This document shows positions 951 through 19,504 of a DNA stretch of 64,000 bases, piece by piece. The notes under the pieces were generated by a model. The model did not search any database and was not told the DNA's origin. It saw nothing but the letters and a program-made list of their open reading frames with translations. The stretch is from positions 17,052-81,051 of the forward strand of contig CAIVAR010000185.1 of assembly GCA_903904005.1 (NCBI GenBank). The letters are read 5' to 3'. The position numbers and the translations under genes were made by a program. This stretch comes from an uncultured Anaeromyxobacter sp. (GTDB lineage: Bacteria > Myxococcota > Myxococcia > Myxococcales > Anaeromyxobacteraceae). Numbering within the stretch: position 1 is the first letter of the stretch; the number at the start of each line of letters is the position of its first letter.

Positions 951-1568
951 CTATTCGACGACGACGACGTCGCCGGAGCTGAGGCGGAACGTGGCGGCGC
1001 GCCCTTCGAGTTGCGTGAGCGAGGCGAAGGTGAACCGGATCCGTGTCGCGCCGCTTCCGTCCGGCCTCTGGCGGATGACCATGATCCGATCGCGATCCGC
1101 GAACGGGGTCATGCCTGCGGCCGATGCAAGCGCCTGGAGCACGCCCGAGCCCGGCTCGATCGAGTAGCTTCCCGGCTTGACGACCTCCCCGATCACCGAA
1201 ACCTGAAGCGGTCGGGCTTCGTCGAGCGTCACGGTCACGACCGGGTTCACGATGTAGTCCTTCAGGCCGGTCTGGATCCTTCCCGCCAGCACCGTTGGCG
1301 TGGCCCCCGCGGCCGGAACGTCGCTGACGAACGGCAGGGAGACCTTTCCGTCGGGACGGACCTTGGTCTTCGTCGTGATGGAGTCCTGGTTCCAGACCCG
1401 GATCGTGATCACGTCGCCGGGCTGGAGGAGATAGTCGGATCCCGATGGAGCGGGCGATGCCGGATAGCTATCCGCCCAGACGAATTCGCCGGTCGTCTTG
1501 CATCCCGTGGCCGACAAGAGCAGCGCGATGGCGCCCAGGAGCGCCGCACCCGATCGTCGTATCATCAT
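951..1568 (-). CDS. Short outer-membrane polysaccharide export (OPX/Wza-family) lipoprotein, Poly_export + one SLBB domain only (205 aa)
   Basis: Start trimmed to MMIRRSGAALLGAIALLLSATGC (lipobox). PES-like motif GDVITIRVW...PDGKVSLPFV and SLBB-like VSVIGEVVKPGSY are present. There is no C-terminal amphipathic helix region. Confidence 0.85.
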   Translation of the reverse strand: MMIRRSGAALLGAIALLLSATGCKTTGEFVWADSYPASPAPSGSDYLLQPGDVITIRVWNQDSITTKTKVRPDGKVSLPFVSDVPAAGATPTVLAGRIQTGLKDYIVNPVVTVTLDEARPLQVSVIGEVVKPGSYSIEPGSGVLQALASAAGMTPFADRDRIMVIRQRPDGSGATRIRFTFASLTQLEGRAATFRLSSGDVVVVE

Positions 1569-1692
1569 CCCCCTCCAGCGTCGGCCGTTCCCCGGCGTCA
1601 ACCCTCCGGGAAGAGTCGAATAGCCTGCCGGAGGTTCCGGCTCCATACCATGAACGGGATGCAGGGGCCGCTCCGCGGCATACCGGAGCCGG

Positions 1693-2880
1693 TCACCTCT
1701 TTTCCTCGCGCGGCGTGCGGACCCAGGTTCCCCGGGCATCCGGCGTGCGCCGAAGTCCGATGGCGGCGCGCCAGGCCAGGTACGCAGGGGCCCCGGCGAG
1801 CGCGGCCACGCCGGCGAGGCCGGTTCCCGACAGGGCCAGACCGCGCGTCACGTAACCGAGGAGGGCCAAGTCGCAGGCGACCCAGGGAACGAGCGCGATG
1901 GCCGAACCGGTCCAGACCCAGGCGATGAGGGCCGCCACCGTGCCGATGGACGACCAGGTGACGATCCGGGAGAGGGGTGGGACCAGGAGATCGAGTGCGA
2001 GATCGACGAGGACCCGGTTCCGCTCCCGGATGCCCCGGGCAAGCAAGGGCATCGCCCGCGATCGCGCAAGATCCCGGCGGCCGTGCTCCCACCTCCGGCG
2101 CTGGGGACGGGAGGCCTCCGCCCCCGAGGCCATGACCCCGAGGACCGAGGCCTCCTCGACGTAGCGGATCCGGTGGCCAGCCTCCCCGAGCTGGATTCCG
2201 TACTCCACGTCCTCCACGACCGAGTGGGCGGAATGGGGGATCTCGCGCAGCAAGCGCGCCGAGAAGCACATCCCGTTGCCGCGGAGGCCGCTCGAGAGGG
2301 AGAGGCGCTCCCGGCCCAGCGACCGGAGGTCGTGGAAGAGTGCGAGCGCGATCGTCATGAGCCGCGTTCGCCACGAGTCCTCCGGGTTGCGCACCCCGTA
2401 CCGGGCCTGCATCGCCAGCGCTCCATCGGCGAGGCGCGCGGAGAACGCCGAGAGGAGGTTCGGGGTGGCCAGCGAGTCGGCGTCGACGACCACGAAGGCG
2501 TCGGTCGAGCCCTCCTCGAGGAGCAGGCCGAACGCGTACTCCAGCGCGAAGCCCTTGCCGCGTCGGGACGGGTCGACTCGCTCGATGACCCGGGCGCCGG
2601 CAATCGCGGCCCGGGCGGCGGTCGAATCGGTGCAGTTGTCGGCCACGACGATCACCCGGCGGAGGCCGGCGGGGTAATCGAGGGCAAGGAGGCTCTCGAC
2701 CGTCTCTCCGATCCCGGCCTCCTCGTCGTGGGCGGGTACGACGATGCCGAATCGGATGCCGGGCGGCGGTGGCGCAGGGACCCGGCCGGCACGCGCGAAG
2801 ATGGTCAGCACGGCCAGGTAGCCCGTCGCGAGCACGACCGGGAGCGCGAGGACAAGGAGGGCGACGTTCAGGAGGATCAT
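1693..2880 (-). CDS. Membrane-embedded family-2 glycosyltransferase with processive-synthase motifs (PgaC/NodC/CesA-like)
   Basis: Start trimmed to MILLNVALLVLALPVV (ATGA overlap with the upstream stop). Motifs seen: VPAHDEE, VVDADS, VEDVEY and QRRRW (nt 2089..2103). TM segments occur at the N-terminus and in the C-terminal third. Confidence 0.85.
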   Translation of the reverse strand: MILLNVALLVLALPVVLATGYLAVLTIFARAGRVPAPPPPGIRFGIVVPAHDEEAGIGETVESLLALDYPAGLRRVIVVADNCTDSTAARAAIAGARVIERVDPSRRGKGFALEYAFGLLLEEGSTDAFVVVDADSLATPNLLSAFSARLADGALAMQARYGVRNPEDSWRTRLMTIALALFHDLRSLGRERLSLSSGLRGNGMCFSARLLREIPHSAHSVVEDVEYGIQLGEAGHRIRYVEEASVLGVMASGAEASRPQRRRWEHGRRDLARSRAMPLLARGIRERNRVLVDLALDLLVPPLSRIVTWSSIGTVAALIAWVWTGSAIALVPWVACDLALLGYVTRGLALSGTGLAGVAALAGAPAYLAWRAAIGLRRTPDARGTWVRTPREEKR

Positions 2881-5800
2881 GGGCGGGTCGAAGGGGAGGG
2901 AACGCTCGCAGACGAGGGGAGCGGATGCAAGCTGGGGACCGGACTGCCCTGGTCGGAGGGGCGACGGGCCCTCTGGCGCCAGGCGCCCCTCGCCGAGGCC
3001 AGCTTGCCGGCCGCGGCGAGGGCGGGCGCCAGGAGGAACACGCCGTGCCACGAGACGATCGCCATGTCGCCGTAAGCCTGGATGAGGAACACGACGGCCA
3101 CGGAGACCACCGTCAGGCAGGCCGAGCGCAGGAGGGGGTCGGCCGTTGCACGGTATGCGCGGGCGGCCAGGTAGAGCCCCACCGTCAGGAAGGCGAACAG
3201 GGTGGTGAAGCCGAGCACGCCACCGAATGCCAGGAGTCCGAGCAGGCTGTTGTGCGGGATGAACCGCCACTGGGCGAAGAGGTGGGAGATGTCGTCACCG
3301 CGCGTGTACTGGACGTATTCCCGGCCGAAGCCCATCCCCAGGAACGGATTGTCCTGGAGGTTCTTGACCAGGTTGTAGTTCTCGACGTCCCTTTCCTCCG
3401 TGGATCGGTCGGACTTCGAATCGACCACCGAACGGACCTTGGCGACGGGCGCGAAGACCCGGGACCCGGAGTTCCACCCGGCGACCATGTAGAGCAACAG
3501 CACCGGTGCAGCCAGGACGAGGCCGCGCTGGATCGTCCGCTTCGCGCGCGAGCGCGGCAGCATGAAGTACACGACCACCAGGGCTGCGACGATCTCCACC
3601 CAGACGAGCCGCCGGTTGTTGGCGACCATCCCGGCGATCAGGATCGGCGAGAGGAGGAGCAGTCGGCCGAAGGTCCGCCGGCCAGGCGCCTCCACGGCCA
3701 TCACGACCAGCAGGCATGCGGAGCTTGCGAAGAGCATCGAGTCCGCGTGGGAGGTGGCCGTGGGCAGGGACTCGACGGGGAGCGCCACGGTCACCCGCAC
3801 CCAGACCGCGAGGCAAGCCTTGACGAGGGCCGCGGCGACGACGGTCCGCGCGAGCGGCGCGAGGTCCCGAGGGCCCCGCAGGGCGGCCAGGAAGAGCAGC
3901 ACCATGGCGAGCAGCATGGCGGGTACGTGGCACTGCCAGAGGACCTGCCCGAGGTCACCGCCCTGGGCCATCCCCGTCGCCACGAGTACGGCCATGGCCC
4001 CGAGGGAGACGAACACCGCTCCGACGAGGGGAGCGGGTGCGGGCCAGGATCCGTCCGTGTCGACACCCTTCCCCGCCATCCGGCGGCCGACGGCGACCGC
4101 GGCGAGAAGGGCGAAGATGGCGTCCACCCCGGCGAAGCGCAGAGCGGGCACCGGGAGCGTGAGGTTGAGGTTCGAGTTGAGGAGATGGCCGAGGAGGTGC
4201 CACGGGGACTGCCACCTCCCCGAGGAGTCCCCGGGGGCGTCCAGGACGAGCATCGAGAAGAGGAGGACCAGCGTGCTCTGGCGCAGGGGTGCCGTGACGA
4301 GCCACCAGGCGGCGGCGGCGAGGAGGGTGGGGGCCACGGCGATGAGCGGGTTGGCCGCGTTCGCGAGAAGGAGGACCGTCGAGACGGCGACGCCTCCCGT
4401 GATGGCCGCCACGCCCAAGCGACGTGTCCGTGAGACCGTCACGGGGCCCGTCCCCGGTGAGGGCGCCCGGGACGTCGCCAGGAAGGTGAACGCCCCGAGC
4501 ACGACACCGCAGAGGATCCCGCCCAGGACCACGACGAGCGGGCGGGGCCGAACGGGTTCGACGGGGACCTCCGCAGGGACCACGATCATGTACCGGTACG
4601 CGAATGCGGCCCGGACCACGTCGGCCTCGATCCGGGCGGCCTCGATCCGGCGAAGGATGCGCTCCTGCTCCAGGGCGACGATGTGGAGGCGTCCCCTGGC
4701 GGCCACCAGGCCCGGCGGATCGGCCCGGCGATCCCGGATGGCCGGCAGCGGCACCTCGTCCATCGGCCCGGCGCGGGACGAGCCGGAGCGCACGAGCACG
4801 CCGTCGGCATCGGTGCGCTCCCTTCCATCGATGCCGTTCGCGATCCGCGGACGAGCCCCTGGGACGCGGGGATCTCGCTGCACCCCGCCACGAAGTCCGG
4901 CGGCCACGAGCGGGCGCTGGGTATCCTCGGCCTCGGCGGGCGTCGCCATGGCCTCCTCGGCCGCCTCGTCCTCGGAGGCCGAGGTGTCGCCCGCAAGGTG
5001 GCCCGTCTCCAGGTCGCGAATCCGCCGCCGGAGGGCTCCTTCCTGCGGGTCCGGCTCGTCCCACGACGCGAACGCGTCCTGCGCGGCCAGGACGCTGGGG
5101 TGGCGATCGGAGTAGACGGTCCGCAGGGTCGAGAGGCGCGCCTCGGCGTCCTTTCGCCGCGCGGCGCGCGAGGTCTCGAGACGGTCCAGATCGGCGCGCG
5201 CCGACGCCAGCGCCGCGGCGAGGGGATCGGCCGCCGTCGGGGAAGCCGTCCGGAGCACGGGCCGGGTACGCCGCGCCTCGCCGCGAAGTGCCGGAGGGAG
5301 CAGCGCCTCCTCCCGGACCAGTTCCGCCCTCGCAGCGGTGACCGCGTCGCCCGATTCCGCCGCCCGACGCTCCAGGATCGCGATGACCTCGTCGACCGGC
5401 TGTACCTCCCGGGCCCTCCGCGTCTCCAGGAACTTCTGCTGCGCCGCCTCGACGAGCACGAACGCGGTCCTGGCGCTCGGCCAGTCGATCCCGATCGCGA
5501 CGGTTCCCTCCGGCAGCGCCTTCACGTAGAGGCGCTTGCGGAGGATCTCGACCAGCTGGTCCCGGCGGTCGTCCAGCATGGGGATGGGGCCGCGGGCGGA
5601 CCGCAGCCGATCGACCGCGCGCAGGACGAAGCCTCGGTCTTTCTCCCAGCGTGACAGGAGGTCGGTCTCCTGGATGATGGAGAGCAGGTTGCGGCGGCTG
5701 AGGACGAGGTCGGCAGCGGCCCAGCCAGGCGCTTCGCCTCCCTGGGCACGCCCCCGATCCGGGTTCACGAGCGCCGGCATCCGGAGGTGCGGCTCCGCGA

Positions 5801-5936
5801 GGAGTACCGCCTCCACGTGCCAGGTGCTGGGCATCGCGAGCAGCGTCACGGCGACGAGCGCCTGGACCGCGAGGAAGACCCCGGCCGCGAGACGGAAGGG
5901 ACTGCGAGAGGGGGTCTGGCTCGAGCCGGCGGGCAT
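2877..5936 (-). CDS. Single-ORF fusion: polysaccharide co-polymerase (Wzz/GumC-like, about aa 1-490) + Wzy/O-antigen-ligase-family polymerase (about aa 500-1019)
   Basis: The N-terminal half has a TM, a long coiled/charged periplasmic region and a second TM (AFAYRYMIVVPAE...LVVVLGGILCGVVLGAF), and is paralogous to CDS 17934..19406. The C-terminal half is polytopic with the Wzy_C-like block NPFLGMGFGREY...RFIPHNSLLGLLAFGG. No stop codon lies between the halves; the junction is about nt 4440-4470. Confidence 0.8.
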   Translation of the reverse strand: MPAGSSQTPSRSPFRLAAGVFLAVQALVAVTLLAMPSTWHVEAVLLAEPHLRMPALVNPDRGRAQGGEAPGWAAADLVLSRRNLLSIIQETDLLSRWEKDRGFVLRAVDRLRSARGPIPMLDDRRDQLVEILRKRLYVKALPEGTVAIGIDWPSARTAFVLVEAAQQKFLETRRAREVQPVDEVIAILERRAAESGDAVTAARAELVREEALLPPALRGEARRTRPVLRTASPTAADPLAAALASARADLDRLETSRAARRKDAEARLSTLRTVYSDRHPSVLAAQDAFASWDEPDPQEGALRRRIRDLETGHLAGDTSASEDEAAEEAMATPAEAEDTQRPLVAAGLRGGVQRDPRVPGARPRIANGIDGRERTDADGVLVRSGSSRAGPMDEVPLPAIRDRRADPPGLVAARGRLHIVALEQERILRRIEAARIEADVVRAAFAYRYMIVVPAEVPVEPVRPRPLVVVLGGILCGVVLGAFTFLATSRAPSPGTGPVTVSRTRRLGVAAITGGVAVSTVLLLANAANPLIAVAPTLLAAAAWWLVTAPLRQSTLVLLFSMLVLDAPGDSSGRWQSPWHLLGHLLNSNLNLTLPVPALRFAGVDAIFALLAAVAVGRRMAGKGVDTDGSWPAPAPLVGAVFVSLGAMAVLVATGMAQGGDLGQVLWQCHVPAMLLAMVLLFLAALRGPRDLAPLARTVVAAALVKACLAVWVRVTVALPVESLPTATSHADSMLFASSACLLVVMAVEAPGRRTFGRLLLLSPILIAGMVANNRRLVWVEIVAALVVVYFMLPRSRAKRTIQRGLVLAAPVLLLYMVAGWNSGSRVFAPVAKVRSVVDSKSDRSTEERDVENYNLVKNLQDNPFLGMGFGREYVQYTRGDDISHLFAQWRFIPHNSLLGLLAFGGVLGFTTLFAFLTVGLYLAARAYRATADPLLRSACLTVVSVAVVFLIQAYGDMAIVSWHGVFLLAPALAAAGKLASARGAWRQRARRPSDQGSPVPSLHPLPSSASVPSPSTRP

Positions 5937-15867: not shown

Positions 15868-17364
15868 TCAGCGGGCCGGCCGGAGGGCGGACCGGGTGAA
15901 GTCCCGGAGTTCCCGCCAGTCGACCGCGCGCAGCGCGAGGACCAGGACGACGTAGGCGACCGCGTCGAGCGCGATCCGTGCGGGCCCGAGGGGACGTGCC
16001 AGCAGGTGAACCACCACGACGACGGCGACGGCAGCGAAGGTGCGGAGCAGCATCCGGCGGCTCCGCCTGTCGAAGGCCACGCCGCCGAGCGAGGCCGTCA
16101 AGGCCACCACGACCACGGCCTCCGCTCCCAGCATGGCGAGCGCTGCCCCGGTCCCGGCGCCACCCCACGCGCCGAAATGGTTCTTCGCGACCCCCACGAG
16201 CAGCACGCAGAGAAATGGATTGACCAGGAGTCCGGTCAGCGAGATGCGGGTGACGAACCACTCCTTGCCCGTGACGTTGAGCGCGCAAGCGCTGACGGTG
16301 GCGACGTAGGTCAGCACGTACATCGCGGCGAGAACGCGGAGTTGGTGGGCCGCCGGGGCGTATGCCATGCCGAAGATGAGTCGGATCCAGACGTCGGCCC
16401 CGAGAATGAGGATCAGCGAGGTCGGGACCGCGATGGACACGACCACCTCCATCGATCGGGCCACCGCTTCGCGCATCGCCTCGGGTCCGCGAGCGGAGGC
16501 GCGCACGAAGAGCGGCATGAGCACCCAGCCGACGAGTGGCGTCACGAGGAGGGAGAGCCCGGCGAGGCTGGCTGCCGCGCCGTACCAGCCGAGTTGCTGC
16601 TCGTCACGGATCGAGAAGGAGAGGACCGTCATGTCGATGCGGCCATACGCGGTGAAGGCGATGGTGTTCAGGTAGAAGGGGACGCCGATCACCACCGACC
16701 GCCAGGCCGCAGGAATGTCGACGTGAAACCGGAGGCCCACGTCACGGCGGGCCAGGGCATAGGTCGCAGCGGCCTTTGCCGTCTCGGCGACGAGGAGGGC
16801 GACGGCCACGGCCTCGAGAGGGTAGGGCGTCGCCATCCCGATGAGCACGCCGGAGGCCCAGAGGAGCTTGGAGGCCACGTTGACCATGGAGAGCCCGCCC
16901 ACCACGCTCCGCGCGTGGAGTACGGCCGAAGCGGTCAAGCCGATGCTCATGACGAACTGGGCCAGGCCGAAGAGGAACACCAGTCGCCAGACCACGCCCG
17001 GCTGCCGCGTCACCTGGAGGATCAGCGCCATGGCCGCGAGGACCAGCAACGAGAGCCCGGCACGCAGTACCACCACGCCCCCGAAGAGTGCGGTGGCCAT
17101 CTCGGGATGGACCGGCACCTCCTTCCGGATCTGGGTGTCGATCCCGAAGGCGATGAGGACGAAGGCGGTGGCGGTGAAGGCGTCGGCGAAGTTCATCCAG
17201 CCGAAGGCTGCCGGACCGAGTTGACGCGGAAGCAGGATGCGGATCCCGATGGCGATCGCCCAGGTCAGCAGCAGCGACCCCCCCAGGCGGACCCCGCTGC
17301 GCAGGGCCACGGCGGCGTCGCTCGCTGCCGGTTCCTCACGGCGCTCGGCTTCGCGGGTGGGCAC
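15868..17364 (-). CDS. Wzx-type polysaccharide flippase (MOP/PST family)
   Basis: 498-aa polytopic membrane protein with about 12+ hydrophobic segments and the typical PST N-terminus (GGSLLLTWAIAIGIRILLPRQLGPAAFG). Confidence 0.8.
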   Translation of the reverse strand: MPTREAERREEPAASDAAVALRSGVRLGGSLLLTWAIAIGIRILLPRQLGPAAFGWMNFADAFTATAFVLIAFGIDTQIRKEVPVHPEMATALFGGVVVLRAGLSLLVLAAMALILQVTRQPGVVWRLVFLFGLAQFVMSIGLTASAVLHARSVVGGLSMVNVASKLLWASGVLIGMATPYPLEAVAVALLVAETAKAAATYALARRDVGLRFHVDIPAAWRSVVIGVPFYLNTIAFTAYGRIDMTVLSFSIRDEQQLGWYGAAASLAGLSLLVTPLVGWVLMPLFVRASARGPEAMREAVARSMEVVVSIAVPTSLILILGADVWIRLIFGMAYAPAAHQLRVLAAMYVLTYVATVSACALNVTGKEWFVTRISLTGLLVNPFLCVLLVGVAKNHFGAWGGAGTGAALAMLGAEAVVVVALTASLGGVAFDRRSRRMLLRTFAAVAVVVVVHLLARPLGPARIALDAVAYVVLVLALRAVDWRELRDFTRSALRPAR

Positions 17365-17379
17365 CTGCGTCCGGGTCCG

Positions 17380-17925
17380 TCAGGGCGTCGACGCAGCAGC
17401 GGCGTCGACGTCCTTGCGAGGGCGGATGGTGGCTGGAATGCCTGCTGCGACGGAGTCGGGAGGGACGTCCTTGAGGACGACGGCGTTGGCGCCGATGCGG
17501 GACCGGGCGCCGATCCGGATGGGCCCCAGGATCCGTGCTCCTGCGCCGATCCAGACGTCTTCCTCGATCACCGGGTAGCCGTCGTCGCGTACCGTCCCCA
17601 CGGTGTTGTTCCCGTAGAACCGGACCCGGTCGCCGATGCGGGCGTCCCCGCCGATGATCACCCCGAGGCTGTGAACGAAGTAGACACCCCGGCCGAGCAC
17701 CACGCGGGAGTCGATCTCGATCGAGAACATGGCGGTCTGCACCATGCGCAGGATGTGGTTGACGAGCGGGATGTGCAAACGGCGGGACGCCTCCCGGATC
17801 CGGTTGAGGAAGGTGATCCGGTAGGAATCGCTCCCGAAGACGAGGCGTGCGATCGCTCGGGGCGTCGTCTGCCCGGTGGCGGCCGTGGCCAGCTGGATGG
17901 CGTCGTCGCGAAGGGCGCTGAACAT
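17380..17925 (-). CDS. Serine-O-acetyltransferase-like LbH O-acetyltransferase
   Basis: Start trimmed to MFSALRDD. CysE-like helical N-terminal region plus hexapeptide repeats (GVYFVHSLGVIIGGDARIGDRVRFYGNNTVG...IGAGARILGPIRIGARSRIGANAVV). Confidence 0.85.
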   Translation of the reverse strand: MFSALRDDAIQLATAATGQTTPRAIARLVFGSDSYRITFLNRIREASRRLHIPLVNHILRMVQTAMFSIEIDSRVVLGRGVYFVHSLGVIIGGDARIGDRVRFYGNNTVGTVRDDGYPVIEEDVWIGAGARILGPIRIGARSRIGANAVVLKDVPPDSVAAGIPATIRPRKDVDAAAASTP

Positions 17926-17933
17926 CCGGAGCC

Positions 17934-19406
17934 TCAGGAAGCCTCTCCCCGTCGCGAGACGGGGTTCCGGACCAGGCCGCCGATCCCCCACGGCCGCGGG
18001 AGGACGCCCCTCCAGAAGTCGAGGAGCGCGGTTCCCAGGATCGCGAGGACGGCGCCGCCGAGGATGCCCGCCACGATCAGCAGCGGGACGTTCGGCTTGG
18101 AGGGCTTCTTCGTGACCTCGGCAGGGCGGATCACGACATAGCGGTAGGCAAAGGCGGCCCGCGCGGTGTCGAGCTCGATCCGCGCGGCCTCGATGCGGCC
18201 GGCCAGGCTCTCGTACTTCTGCAGGGCGTAGTCGAGCTGGGTCCGCCAGTACTGGACCGTTTCGCTCTCCTGCTCCTTGCGGCCCTCCCTCGCGAACGCC
18301 GGGGCGACCGGCCTGCTACCGGAGGAACCTCCGGTCCGGCGCGTGTCCAGATCGGCGGCCGAACCGCCGCGAGCGGTGAGCTGGGCGAGGAGGTCCCGCT
18401 CGTCGCGACGCAACTGGGCCACCTGCGGGGAGTCCTTCTGCAGGGACTGGATGCTCTCGGTCGTGGCGACCACGAGGGGATGACTCCGGGTGTAGCTTGC
18501 CGAGAGCTCCGTGAGCTGCGACTGCAGCTCGACCAGGCGGCGCTGCCGGTACTCCTCCAGGTCCTGGAGGGCTCGCCGCTTGGCCACGAGCATCACCCGA
18601 AGGTTGGCAACCTCGGGAGAGACGGTGGCCTCGCCGTCCACGCGCGTCGGCTGCCGGGTCGCCGGGGAAGCGCGGCGGGACTCCCGCTCCTTCTCGAGCT
18701 CCGACATCGCGGTGTCGACACGCCCCCTGGCCGTCGCCGCGTGCCCCTCGAGGATGGAGATGGCCTCGGCGATCGTGGAAACCTCGATCGCGTGCCGGGT
18801 CTCGAGGAAGTTCTGCTGGGCGAGTGTGACGAGCTGGTAGGCCATCCGGGGGTCCGACCACTCGATCCCGATGGTGATGACCCCATCGCCCGTGGTGACC
18901 TTGAGCCGCTTCTCGAGGAGGTAGACCAGGGCCCGACGCTGCTCCTCCAGATCGGGCGTACCCGAGACCAGGGACGTCAGCCAGTCCTTGGCGCGGTTGA
19001 GAAACGGGCGCTCCCTCTGCCAGGCGGCGAGCAGGTCCGTCTGGTCCATCAGGACGAGGAGATTGTCCCTGCGGAGGATGGTCTCGGCGGCGGCCCGTGT
19101 CGGGGCGTCTGCATCCAGCGGGATCGAACGGTTCGGATTCCCGAGGGCAGGCATGATGAGGTTTCGGGACGCCAGGATCCGCGCCTCGGTGTAGTAGGTG
19201 CGAGGAAGGAGAACCGCCGCGGCGATGGCGATGGCGACCACCAGGACGAAGATCGTGGCCGCAAGCACGGGATGCCGGCGCGGTGCCCCGCACACGAAGA
19301 CGACGTCATGCCCGAGGGCCGGCCAGTCGAAGAGCGGTCCGTCGCCTCCCGGGGACGAAGGGGGGAAAGACGGATCGACGCGATGAAGTGGGGTGTCGTT
19401 GGCCAT
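17934..19406 (-). CDS. Polysaccharide co-polymerase (Wzz/GumC-like chain-length determinant), no kinase domain
   Basis: Start trimmed to MANDTPL. Two TMs flank a coiled periplasmic region. Clear paralogy to the N-terminal half of 2877..5936 (RRDNLLVLMDQTDLLAAW; AFAYRYVVIRPAE). Confidence 0.8.
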   Translation of the reverse strand: MANDTPLHRVDPSFPPSSPGGDGPLFDWPALGHDVVFVCGAPRRHPVLAATIFVLVVAIAIAAAVLLPRTYYTEARILASRNLIMPALGNPNRSIPLDADAPTRAAAETILRRDNLLVLMDQTDLLAAWQRERPFLNRAKDWLTSLVSGTPDLEEQRRALVYLLEKRLKVTTGDGVITIGIEWSDPRMAYQLVTLAQQNFLETRHAIEVSTIAEAISILEGHAATARGRVDTAMSELEKERESRRASPATRQPTRVDGEATVSPEVANLRVMLVAKRRALQDLEEYRQRRLVELQSQLTELSASYTRSHPLVVATTESIQSLQKDSPQVAQLRRDERDLLAQLTARGGSAADLDTRRTGGSSGSRPVAPAFAREGRKEQESETVQYWRTQLDYALQKYESLAGRIEAARIELDTARAAFAYRYVVIRPAEVTKKPSKPNVPLLIVAGILGGAVLAILGTALLDFWRGVLPRPWGIGGLVRNPVSRRGEAS

Positions 19407-19504
19407 TCCAGGAGAACTCACTCGATGTTGGCCGGCACGATAGGCGACTCCGGGCGCGAGCGCCACCCATGCGGTGAGGGGACGTCCGGGAGGCGGCGGC
19501 AGGT

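Follow-up and report, generated by a model that had tools for sequence, protein, structure and literature searches.

The stretch of DNA analysed here (the window) comprises 64,000 nucleotides of contig CAIVAR010000185.1 (positions 17,052–81,051 of the forward strand) from an uncultured Anaeromyxobacter sp. (assembly GCA_903904005.1). Its minus strand carries a polysaccharide locus with one Wzx-type flippase, one outer-membrane polysaccharide export (OPX) protein, and two polysaccharide co-polymerases (PCPs). One PCP is free; the other is joined to a Wzy-type domain in a single open reading frame (ORF) at 2877..5936, which is the sole Wzy-type gene of the locus (Table 1). Judged from its sequence and from that of its relatives, this ORF very likely encodes a genuine and functional covalent PCP–Wzy fusion belonging to one Wzx/Wzy-dependent exopolysaccharide (EPS) pathway.

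Integrity of the fused gene

Inspection of the ORF showed an ATG start, a TGA stop, and 1019 codons with zero internal stops, as had been claimed in the original prediction, made from the letters of the window. The GC content of the region is approximately 70% and many overlapping open frames are listed there. Because long ORFs are frequent by chance at such a GC content, the coding case for the fusion frame was made from frame-specific codon bias and domain matches rather than from ORF length. The GC content at third codon positions (GC3) was 0.85–0.93 in each 100-codon interval of the fusion frame, and no dip was seen at the joint. The same 1019-residue protein was found on three contigs, for which two differing sizes were recorded (104,813 and 123,633 bases). 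A homologue of 1018 residues from an unrelated JGI metagenome (locus L098), with the same neighbouring genes, was 85% identical, and the junction DNA of the window and of L098 aligned without any gap. All members of the window's own clade (clade A, described below), which come from five independent assemblies, were fused.

Comparison with the 85% homologue gave a ratio of nonsynonymous to synonymous substitution (dN/dS) of 0.15 in the Wzy domain; in the two folded PCP segments it was 0.24 and 0.08, and in the linker it was 0.56. These values indicate purifying selection on both the PCP and the Wzy half, with the frame kept through a freely evolving linker. The claim of a natural single-polypeptide fusion thus agreed with codon bias, domain content, relatives, and topology, and the sequencing error at the junction that had been named as one refuting outcome left no sign in the three contigs, the gapless homologue, or the uniform GC3.

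Domain organization and membrane topology

Residues 16–332 and approximately 405–486 of the fused protein matched the NCBIfam EpsV model, a PCP family (E = 2.6e-45). The same part aligned with the free PCP of the locus (17934..19466) at 39% identity over 310 amino acids and 48% over 67 amino acids (BLASTP E = 7e-47), in agreement with the earlier view that the N-terminal half is PCP-like and paralogous to the stand-alone PCP. The score of the fused PCP was 154.9 bits, below the EpsV equivalog cut-off of 800, and by profile score both it and the free paralogue (317 bits) are EpsV homologues and not equivalogs. Hydropathy and the positive-inside rule gave a short cytoplasmic N-terminus, a transmembrane (TM) helix at residues 16–34, a 433-residue periplasmic loop, and a second TM helix at residues 468–486. 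This two-TM topology with a long periplasmic domain, expected of a PCP, was also present in the AlphaFold2 (AF2) model. A Pro-rich motif directly before the second TM helix, together with a Gly-rich second TM helix, is a hallmark of PCPs; both were found in the fused protein (PAEVPVEPVRPRPLVVVLGGILCGVVLG), and residues P458, P461, R463, P464, G472, and G473 were invariant in an alignment (A1). Foldseek comparison of the N-terminal half with the PDB returned Wzc (9r68, 7nhr), WzzE (8p3p), and KpsE (8tsh). At its distal end, the periplasmic domain holds an insert of approximately 90 residues (amino acids 315–403) that is rich in Ala, Gly, Arg, and Asp, is 61% identical between the window and the 85% homologue, and stays in frame. 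The distal tip of the PCP periplasmic domain is where PCPs contact the exporter.

The second PCP helix and the first Wzy helix are joined by 20 residues (ATSRAPSPGTGPVTVSRTRR) that include four Arg and zero acidic residues. The frame and length of this linker were kept in the 85% homologue, and its sequence was 35% identical. Positions 456–484 of the EpsV model were unmatched in the fused protein, and a tail for docking of a bacterial tyrosine (BY) kinase or pseudokinase was accordingly not found in it.

Residues 508–986 matched NCBIfam Wzy_EPS (E = 1.5e-122), and residues 765–913 matched Pfam Wzy_C with 48.4 bits against a gathering cut-off of 31.7. The motifs NPFLGMGFGREY and FIPHNSLLGLL and the junction string GPVTVSRTRRLGV, all quoted in the original prediction, were present, and the assignment of the C-terminal half to a polytopic Wzy_C/O-antigen-ligase-family domain was upheld. 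The AF2 model, for which 115 rows of window and locus sequences were aligned, had a mean predicted local distance difference test score (pLDDT) of 84.3 and a predicted TM-score (pTM) of 0.70, with pLDDT >90 in the Wzy part. Hydropathy and the model both gave 14 TM helices and placed the two ends of the Wzy domain, as well as its loops rich in Arg and Lys, on the cytoplasmic side; the 10–14 TM helices and large periplasmic loop expected of a Wzy protein are thus present (14 helices, loop 821–896). TATSHADS, NNRR, VENYN, GMGFG, and PHNSx8GGxxG lay on periplasmic loops of the model. WaaL/Wzy proteins are marked by conserved Arg and His residues on the periplasmic side, among them those of H-[NSQ]-x9-G-xx-G, and H895-N896-x9-G906-xx-G909, N773-R775-R776, H730, D732, and E852 were invariant in the 16 fused proteins. 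An inverted Wzy domain had been put forward as an outcome that would speak against the fusion. The second PCP helix was predicted to end in the cytoplasm, where the linker with its four Arg follows; because the linker and both Wzy ends are cytoplasmic, the Wzy domain is not inverted by the fusion.

Table 1. Coordinates of the fused gene, its predicted parts, and neighbouring genes in the window (aa, amino acids of the fused protein unless stated otherwise).
Feature	Position	Strand	Remarks
PCP–Wzy fusion gene	2877..5936	minus	1019 codons + stop; identical protein on 3 contigs
PCP TM helix 1	5835..5903	minus	aa 12–34; hydropathy 16–34, AF2 helix 12–34; N-terminus cytoplasmic
PCP periplasmic domain	4542..5834	minus	aa 35–465; alpha/beta base + long helices; EpsV match, pLDDT ~90 outside insert
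Disordered, fast-evolving insert at distal periplasmic end	4728..4994	minus	aa 315–403; pLDDT 30–40, dN/dS 0.58
PCP TM helix 2	4473..4541	minus	aa 466–488; Pro-rich PCP motif PAEVPVEPVRPRP before it; GGxxxGxxxG inside
Cytoplasmic linker	4419..4478	minus	aa 487–506, ATSRAPSPGTGPVTVSRTRR; stands in for the 25–45-residue PCP tail + Wzy N-terminal extension of split relatives
Wzy (putative polymerase) domain	2982..4418	minus	aa 507–985; 14 TM; large periplasmic loop aa 821–896
Pfam Wzy_C core	3198..3644	minus	aa 765–913; NNRR, VENYN, GMGFG, PHNSx8GGxxG; invariant in 16 fused proteins
Membrane glycosyltransferase, family GT2	1693..2880	minus	start overlaps fusion stop by 4 nt; same arrangement in L011, L098
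OPX export protein	951..1739	minus	Poly_export + SLBB
Wzx-type flippase	15868..17364	minus	Pfam Polysacc_synt
Free EpsV-like PCP, paralogue and candidate partner of the fused PCP	17934..19466	minus	start uncertain (19406 or 19466); NCBIfam EpsV 1.7e-94
Two-helix membrane ORF, 56 aa	5949..6119	minus	12 nt upstream of fusion; predicted as gene in gene calls

Distribution and recurrent origin of the fusion

A word-indexed sequence search, limited to proteins of similar length, returned fused homologues at 85, 52, and 32% identity and one fragment spanning the joint. When 1.84 billion representatives were searched with a profile, approximately 13 fused clusters (50% identity) were among the best 150 matches (P0004, P0006, P0008–P0014, P0016, P0061, P0102, and P0148), approximately 130 of those 150 being free Wzy proteins of ~500 residues. 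As wrong-frame stretches run long at high GC, open-frame length in the family search cannot separate fused from split genes. In all, 91 loci from GTDB genomes and metagenomes (L numbers), together with the window, were classified with hidden Markov models (HMMs) of both halves. Both domains lay in one frame at 16 loci. The PCP gene was directly upstream of wzy in another frame at approximately 25 loci, separated from it by a gene at 4, and divergent or convergent at 8. In the split pairs, the arrangement of most relatives, the stop codon of the PCP gene and the start codon of wzy overlap as ATGA (GTGA in L006). The nearest relatives of the window's Wzy domain (71%, 61%, and 45–48% identity) were all fused and more distant ones were split with the ATGA overlap; the same fusion thus recurs in related genomes, and the uniformly split orthologs that would have counted against it were not seen. 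The classified loci from named genomes belong to Anaeromyxobacteraceae or to other metagenome-assembled genomes of Myxococcales. This Wzy family was found in 2 of the 14 species of the window's genus, which marks the locus as accessory.

Nine of the fusions are of a short form of ~780–830 amino acids (L015 9944–12298, L019 2302–4728, L021 5981–8410, L025 5756–8248, L030, L054, L059, L061, and L068), in which the PCP is without its central coiled-coil (model positions ~206–336). Two near-identical metagenome contigs differ in the PCP gene, which is split over two frames in one (L014 477–1957) and intact in the other (L013 193–1746); the break probably stems from an error in sequencing, or the copy has recently become a pseudogene.

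In a maximum likelihood tree of the Wzy domain (79 rows; support values in brackets), the fused proteins fell into several separate groups. Clade A (99) consisted of the window, L001, L011, L003, and L034, all fused; clade B (100) of the short-form fusions L015, L019, L021, L025, and L030; and clade C (100) of the fused L054, L061, and L068. L059 and L065 formed a fused pair (99), and the fused L010 was nested among the split L006 and L007 (98). The fusion is therefore recurrent, since this tree requires at least five changes between the fused and the unfused state, and a single fused clade was rejected by the approximately unbiased (AU) test (p = 3e-55).

The types of junction also differed among the fused clades, in line with their separate groups in the tree. 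Split PCPs end in a cytoplasmic C-terminal tail of 25–45 residues with the motif RSGRIVERWQIExxLxLPVL. The fusions of clade C and L010 retain this tail in a linker of 37–43 residues, as simple read-through would give, and those of clades A and B have a linker of 17–22 residues without the tail motif. In Myxococcus xanthus, a groove of the pseudokinase EcpK accommodates the folded C-terminal 25 residues of EpsV (483–507); EcpK stabilises EpsV and is required for EPS synthesis (PMC12004946). Clade A has lost the PCP C-terminal tail, the counterpart of this EcpK-docking segment. No EcpK-like pseudokinase was identified in the genome, which has ParA-like candidates on contigs C96, C21, C171, and C174. 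The clades that keep and those that lose the pseudokinase-binding tail offer natural variants for probing the function of this tail. The fusion would have arisen from an ancestral order in which the PCP gene lay directly upstream of wzy with an ATGA overlap, and in the window's clade the event would also have removed the PCP tail.

Genomic context

The fused Wzy domain is the only member of its Wzy family in the 98%-complete genome. In a second locus of the genome, on contig C139 (~16350–18853, plus strand), another Wzy_C gene has weak PCP-like matches in a separate frame directly upstream, which is a further PCP–wzy adjacency. Contigs C73 and C155 each encode an ordinary PCP-2a protein of the Wzc type (781 and 760 amino acids, respectively), with a kinase domain and a C-terminal tail rich in Tyr; classical polysaccharide pathways under kinase control are therefore also at work in this organism.

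Directly upstream of the fusion lies the two-helix ORF of Table 1, with the consensus MxKLLLxS...P..AxR....RGLRKA...xAFNxxY...RxxxPRL. A dedicated HMM found this ORF of ~55 amino acids in 61 related loci, including L011 (1242–1412) and L098 (649–819). It stands directly upstream of the PCP–wzy gene or pair, or of wzy alone when the PCP is elsewhere, and thus tracks Wzy. It is likely an unrecognised small subunit of this Wzy polymerase family. On the other side of the fusion, the GT2 gene (1693–2880) is adjacent and overlaps the fusion stop by 4 nt; beside this gene order may be set a protein of the representative library (P0129, 927 amino acids) in which an N-terminal membrane GT2 is fused to a Wzy domain of the same family.

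The window's free PCP has an ortholog in the fused locus L003. Its tail (LDFWRGVLPRPWGIGGLVRNPVSRRGEAS, 17934–18020, minus strand) departs after PW from that of the orthologs (L003: LDLRRGLLLYPWQVERQLGIPLLGELDPP), and only the first tail part, LDxxRGxLxxPW, is kept. A frameshift at the 3' end of the gene was considered as an explanation for this odd tail and rejected, as no alternative frame restores the motif. The free PCP ORF overlaps a listed acetyltransferase ORF by 58 nt, and the true acetyltransferase start (MFSALRDD) likely lies further downstream.

Proposed mechanism and subunit stoichiometry

In the proposed mechanism, the Wzx flippase would bring repeat units linked to undecaprenyl pyrophosphate (Und-PP) to the membrane's periplasmic face, where the C-terminal 14-TM Wzy domain would link them. 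The N-terminal PCP module (first TM helix, periplasmic helical domain, and second TM helix) would be tethered to the first Wzy helix by ~20 cytoplasmic residues. Because the linker is only this long, the polymerase would at all times be kept against the TM pair of a single PCP protomer, which corresponds to the contact cross-linked in PslE–PslJ. There, the N-terminus of PslJ adjoins PslE's C-terminal tail and PslJ helices 1–2 lie against one PslE TM pair, the junction contact being confirmed by an S2C–Y658C disulfide (PMC13434223). Seen by this analogy, the fusion makes a junction of the PslE C-terminus/PslJ N-terminus type covalent and is the strongest form of a Rosetta-stone argument. Such an argument for direct PCP–Wzy contact was part of the original prediction and is strengthened, since the fusion arose repeatedly.

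Two points weigh against our interpretation of the gene. The Wzy_EPS match of 409.7 bits is below the equivalog cut-off of 670, so that polymerase activity can be deduced only from family and context; true Wzy_EPS equivalogs score 809–830 bits and were found in three 9-Mb genomes of the same order (family f6). Secondly, a strict 1:1 ratio is at odds with the published ratio of eight PCP to one Wzy with Wzy in the lumen. A single Wzy was placed in the membrane lumen of a PCP octamer for WzzE–WzyE, at 8:1 (PMC10030265), and for PslE–PslJ (PMC13434223), and eight fused chains cannot place all of their Wzy domains in one such lumen. The earlier statement that the fusion would fix a 1:1 stoichiometry ignored the free PCP paralogue, which may dilute the ratio in a mixed ring.

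Two arrangements of the fused chain, about equally likely, were weighed. The first refines the reading of a functional fusion: the fused chain may form one or a few protomers of a ring otherwise made of the free paralogue (17934..19466), with approximately seven free chains, one fused chain, and the polymerase in the lumen, the free PCP handling contacts with the exporter and with any pseudokinase. Of the seven fused loci whose flanks are long, five (window, L003, L010, L034, and L068) had a second, free PCP, compared with 2 of 14 unfused loci; it was present in all four long-form fusions with checkable flanks. The conserved C-terminal tail, which is missing from the window-clade fusions, is retained by the free copies in L003, L010, L034, and L068. 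The fused PCP domains also sit on long branches (0.58 for L010 vs. 0.16 and 0.24 for its split sisters; 1.32 for the stem of clade C), as the fused Wzy domains do not. Together with the report of a single Wzy in the lumen, these observations are consistent with a mixed ring, for which a parallel exists in the heterocomplexes of Rhizobium PssP and PssP2, both of which bind the polymerase PssT (PMC4182512). However, the association between fusion and a second PCP amounts to three phylogenetically independent contrasts and was not significant, no second PCP was found within 6–10 kb of the short-form fusions L015 and L025, and the tail of the window's own free PCP is partly degenerate.

Alternatively, and with the same tentative standing, the fused protein may act alone, as a homo-oligomeric ring with its Wzy domains outside or as a 1:1 unit that forms no ring, with export as a separate role of the free PCP. 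The short-form fusions that have no second PCP nearby would fit this arrangement, the older model of a scaffold for several Wzy molecules continues to be named as an alternative for Wzz (PMC12881504), and a 20-residue linker leaves placement inside or outside the ring free. Against it stand the cryo-EM and cross-linking data that put Wzy inside the PCP lumen, and the free PCP that accompanies the long-form fusions.

The mixed ring is favoured but unproven, as it reconciles the 8:1 structure, the free paralogue, and the long PCP branches. Under it, the fusion could be the "odd protomer" of a hetero-oligomeric ring that hard-wires the 8:1 ratio with one polymerase in the lumen, its PCP copy evolving fast once freed from pseudokinase and exporter contacts; we offer this only as a possibility.

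It is unlikely that the single frame ends up as separate proteins, by internal initiation at the junction or by proteolysis. The linker does hold in-frame GTG, TTG, and GTG codons, and an A-x-A motif follows the first Wzy helix (LLLANA/ANP). The in-frame GTG codons of GPVTVSRTRRLGV, from which the original prediction had suggested additional free Wzy, are thus real, but initiation at them is unsupported, as the position of a start codon in the linker is not conserved among fused relatives. A scan of the linker start codons of the window for Shine-Dalgarno motifs found none, as was the case for true gene starts in the locus, so that the scan does not discriminate. Signal-peptidase cleavage at LLLANA/ANP was rejected: the motif is missing from the closest homologues (ATMTNP, TTSSP, and LSPNA) and the periplasmic turn is just 5 residues. 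Maintenance of the frame through a fast-evolving linker also suggests selection for the joined product.

A role of the C-terminal domain as a WaaL-like ligase or another transferase of the Wzy_C fold, rather than as the pathway polymerase, is very unlikely. Pfam Wzy_C spans ligases and polymerases alike, and in Foldseek comparison with the PDB the ligase WaaL (7tpg) came first (TM-score 0.68, target-normalised), followed by SEDS polymerases. The best NCBIfam match, however, is to the family of a genetically defined Myxococcus EPS polymerase, and no other Wzy-type gene accompanies the Wzx, PCP, and OPX genes of the locus. From family and setting, we infer that the domain is the polymerase joining Und-PP-linked repeat units. 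An artefact, that is, a missed frameshift or stop joining two adjacent genes, is the least probable explanation: many relatives have PCP and wzy adjacent with a 4-nt overlap, so that one error could merge them, but wzy of the split relatives lies in another frame and starts after the 25–45-residue PCP tail, whereas the window has a continuous frame, no tail, and the uniform GC3, three contigs, five fused assemblies, and gapless junction given above.

Comparison with known systems

No description of a natural PCP–Wzy fusion was found in the full-text literature searched. Recent reviews and structure papers treat PCP and Wzy as separate proteins, in agreement with the statement in the original prediction that they normally are. 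The PCP–Wzy structures so far are low-resolution maps with Wzy density within the PCP ring (WzzE–WzyE in 2023 and PslDEJ in 2026), and the interface rests on models and one disulfide cross-link. The question of PCP–Wzy contact is still being worked out and the fusion bears directly on it: the repeated joining of a PCP C-terminus to a Wzy N-terminus, with both halves under purifying selection, provides independent evolutionary evidence for the interface. It also poses a puzzle of stoichiometry, 1:1 by synthesis vs. 8:1 by structure, which the free paralogue at the locus may solve. As a single chain, the fusion is an attractive target for cryo-EM and is suited to split/fuse genetics in a tractable myxobacterium. 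If true, the odd-protomer ring would introduce a new principle for the assembly of Wzx/Wzy machines and offer a natural single-chain handle for a high-resolution PCP–Wzy structure. We rate the value of the finding, which combines known components, as moderate to high.

The pathway belongs to the Myxococcus EPS type, and its host is an Anaeromyxobacteraceae-like myxobacterium. Both halves of the fused protein match the NCBIfam models of EpsV and Wzy_EPS from the EPS pathway of M. xanthus (PMC12004946), which likewise has a Wzx, a short OPX protein plus a probable beta-barrel protein, and a kinase-less PCP. The M. xanthus proteins define these models, and the window's scores are well below their cut-offs (155 vs. 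800 for EpsV and 410 vs. 670 for Wzy_EPS). The Wzy_EPS of Myxococcaceae occupies a 526-codon frame of its own and is a protein separate from EpsV, whereas the window has one chain, in which the C-terminal 25 residues by which EpsV binds EcpK have no counterpart. The split pairs of related Myxococcota (such as L004, L006, and L007) share with the window homologous PCP and Wzy (36–46% identity) and the same order of small ORF, PCP, and wzy; they differ in that PCP and wzy are separate genes, each in its own frame and overlapping by ATGA or GTGA, and in that the PCP keeps the tail RSGRIVERWQIExxLxLPVL.

Physical association of PCP and Wzy is shared with PslE–PslJ (with PslD) of Pseudomonas aeruginosa and with WzzE–WzyE, in which it is non-covalent and 8:1. 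These are separate chains, whereas the fusion imposes equal synthesis of both parts. Rhizobium leguminosarum resembles the window in having two PCP paralogues in one Wzy-dependent EPS pathway (PssP/PssP2/PssT; PMC4182512), which are there, together with the polymerase, three separate proteins, and its PCPs are of another subfamily. Escherichia coli Wzc (PDB 7nhr, 9r62) shares the fold of the N-terminal module and provides a precedent for a PCP whose cytoplasmic C-terminus is fused to a partner; in Wzc this partner is a BY-kinase, and in the window it is a membrane protein, the putative polymerase.

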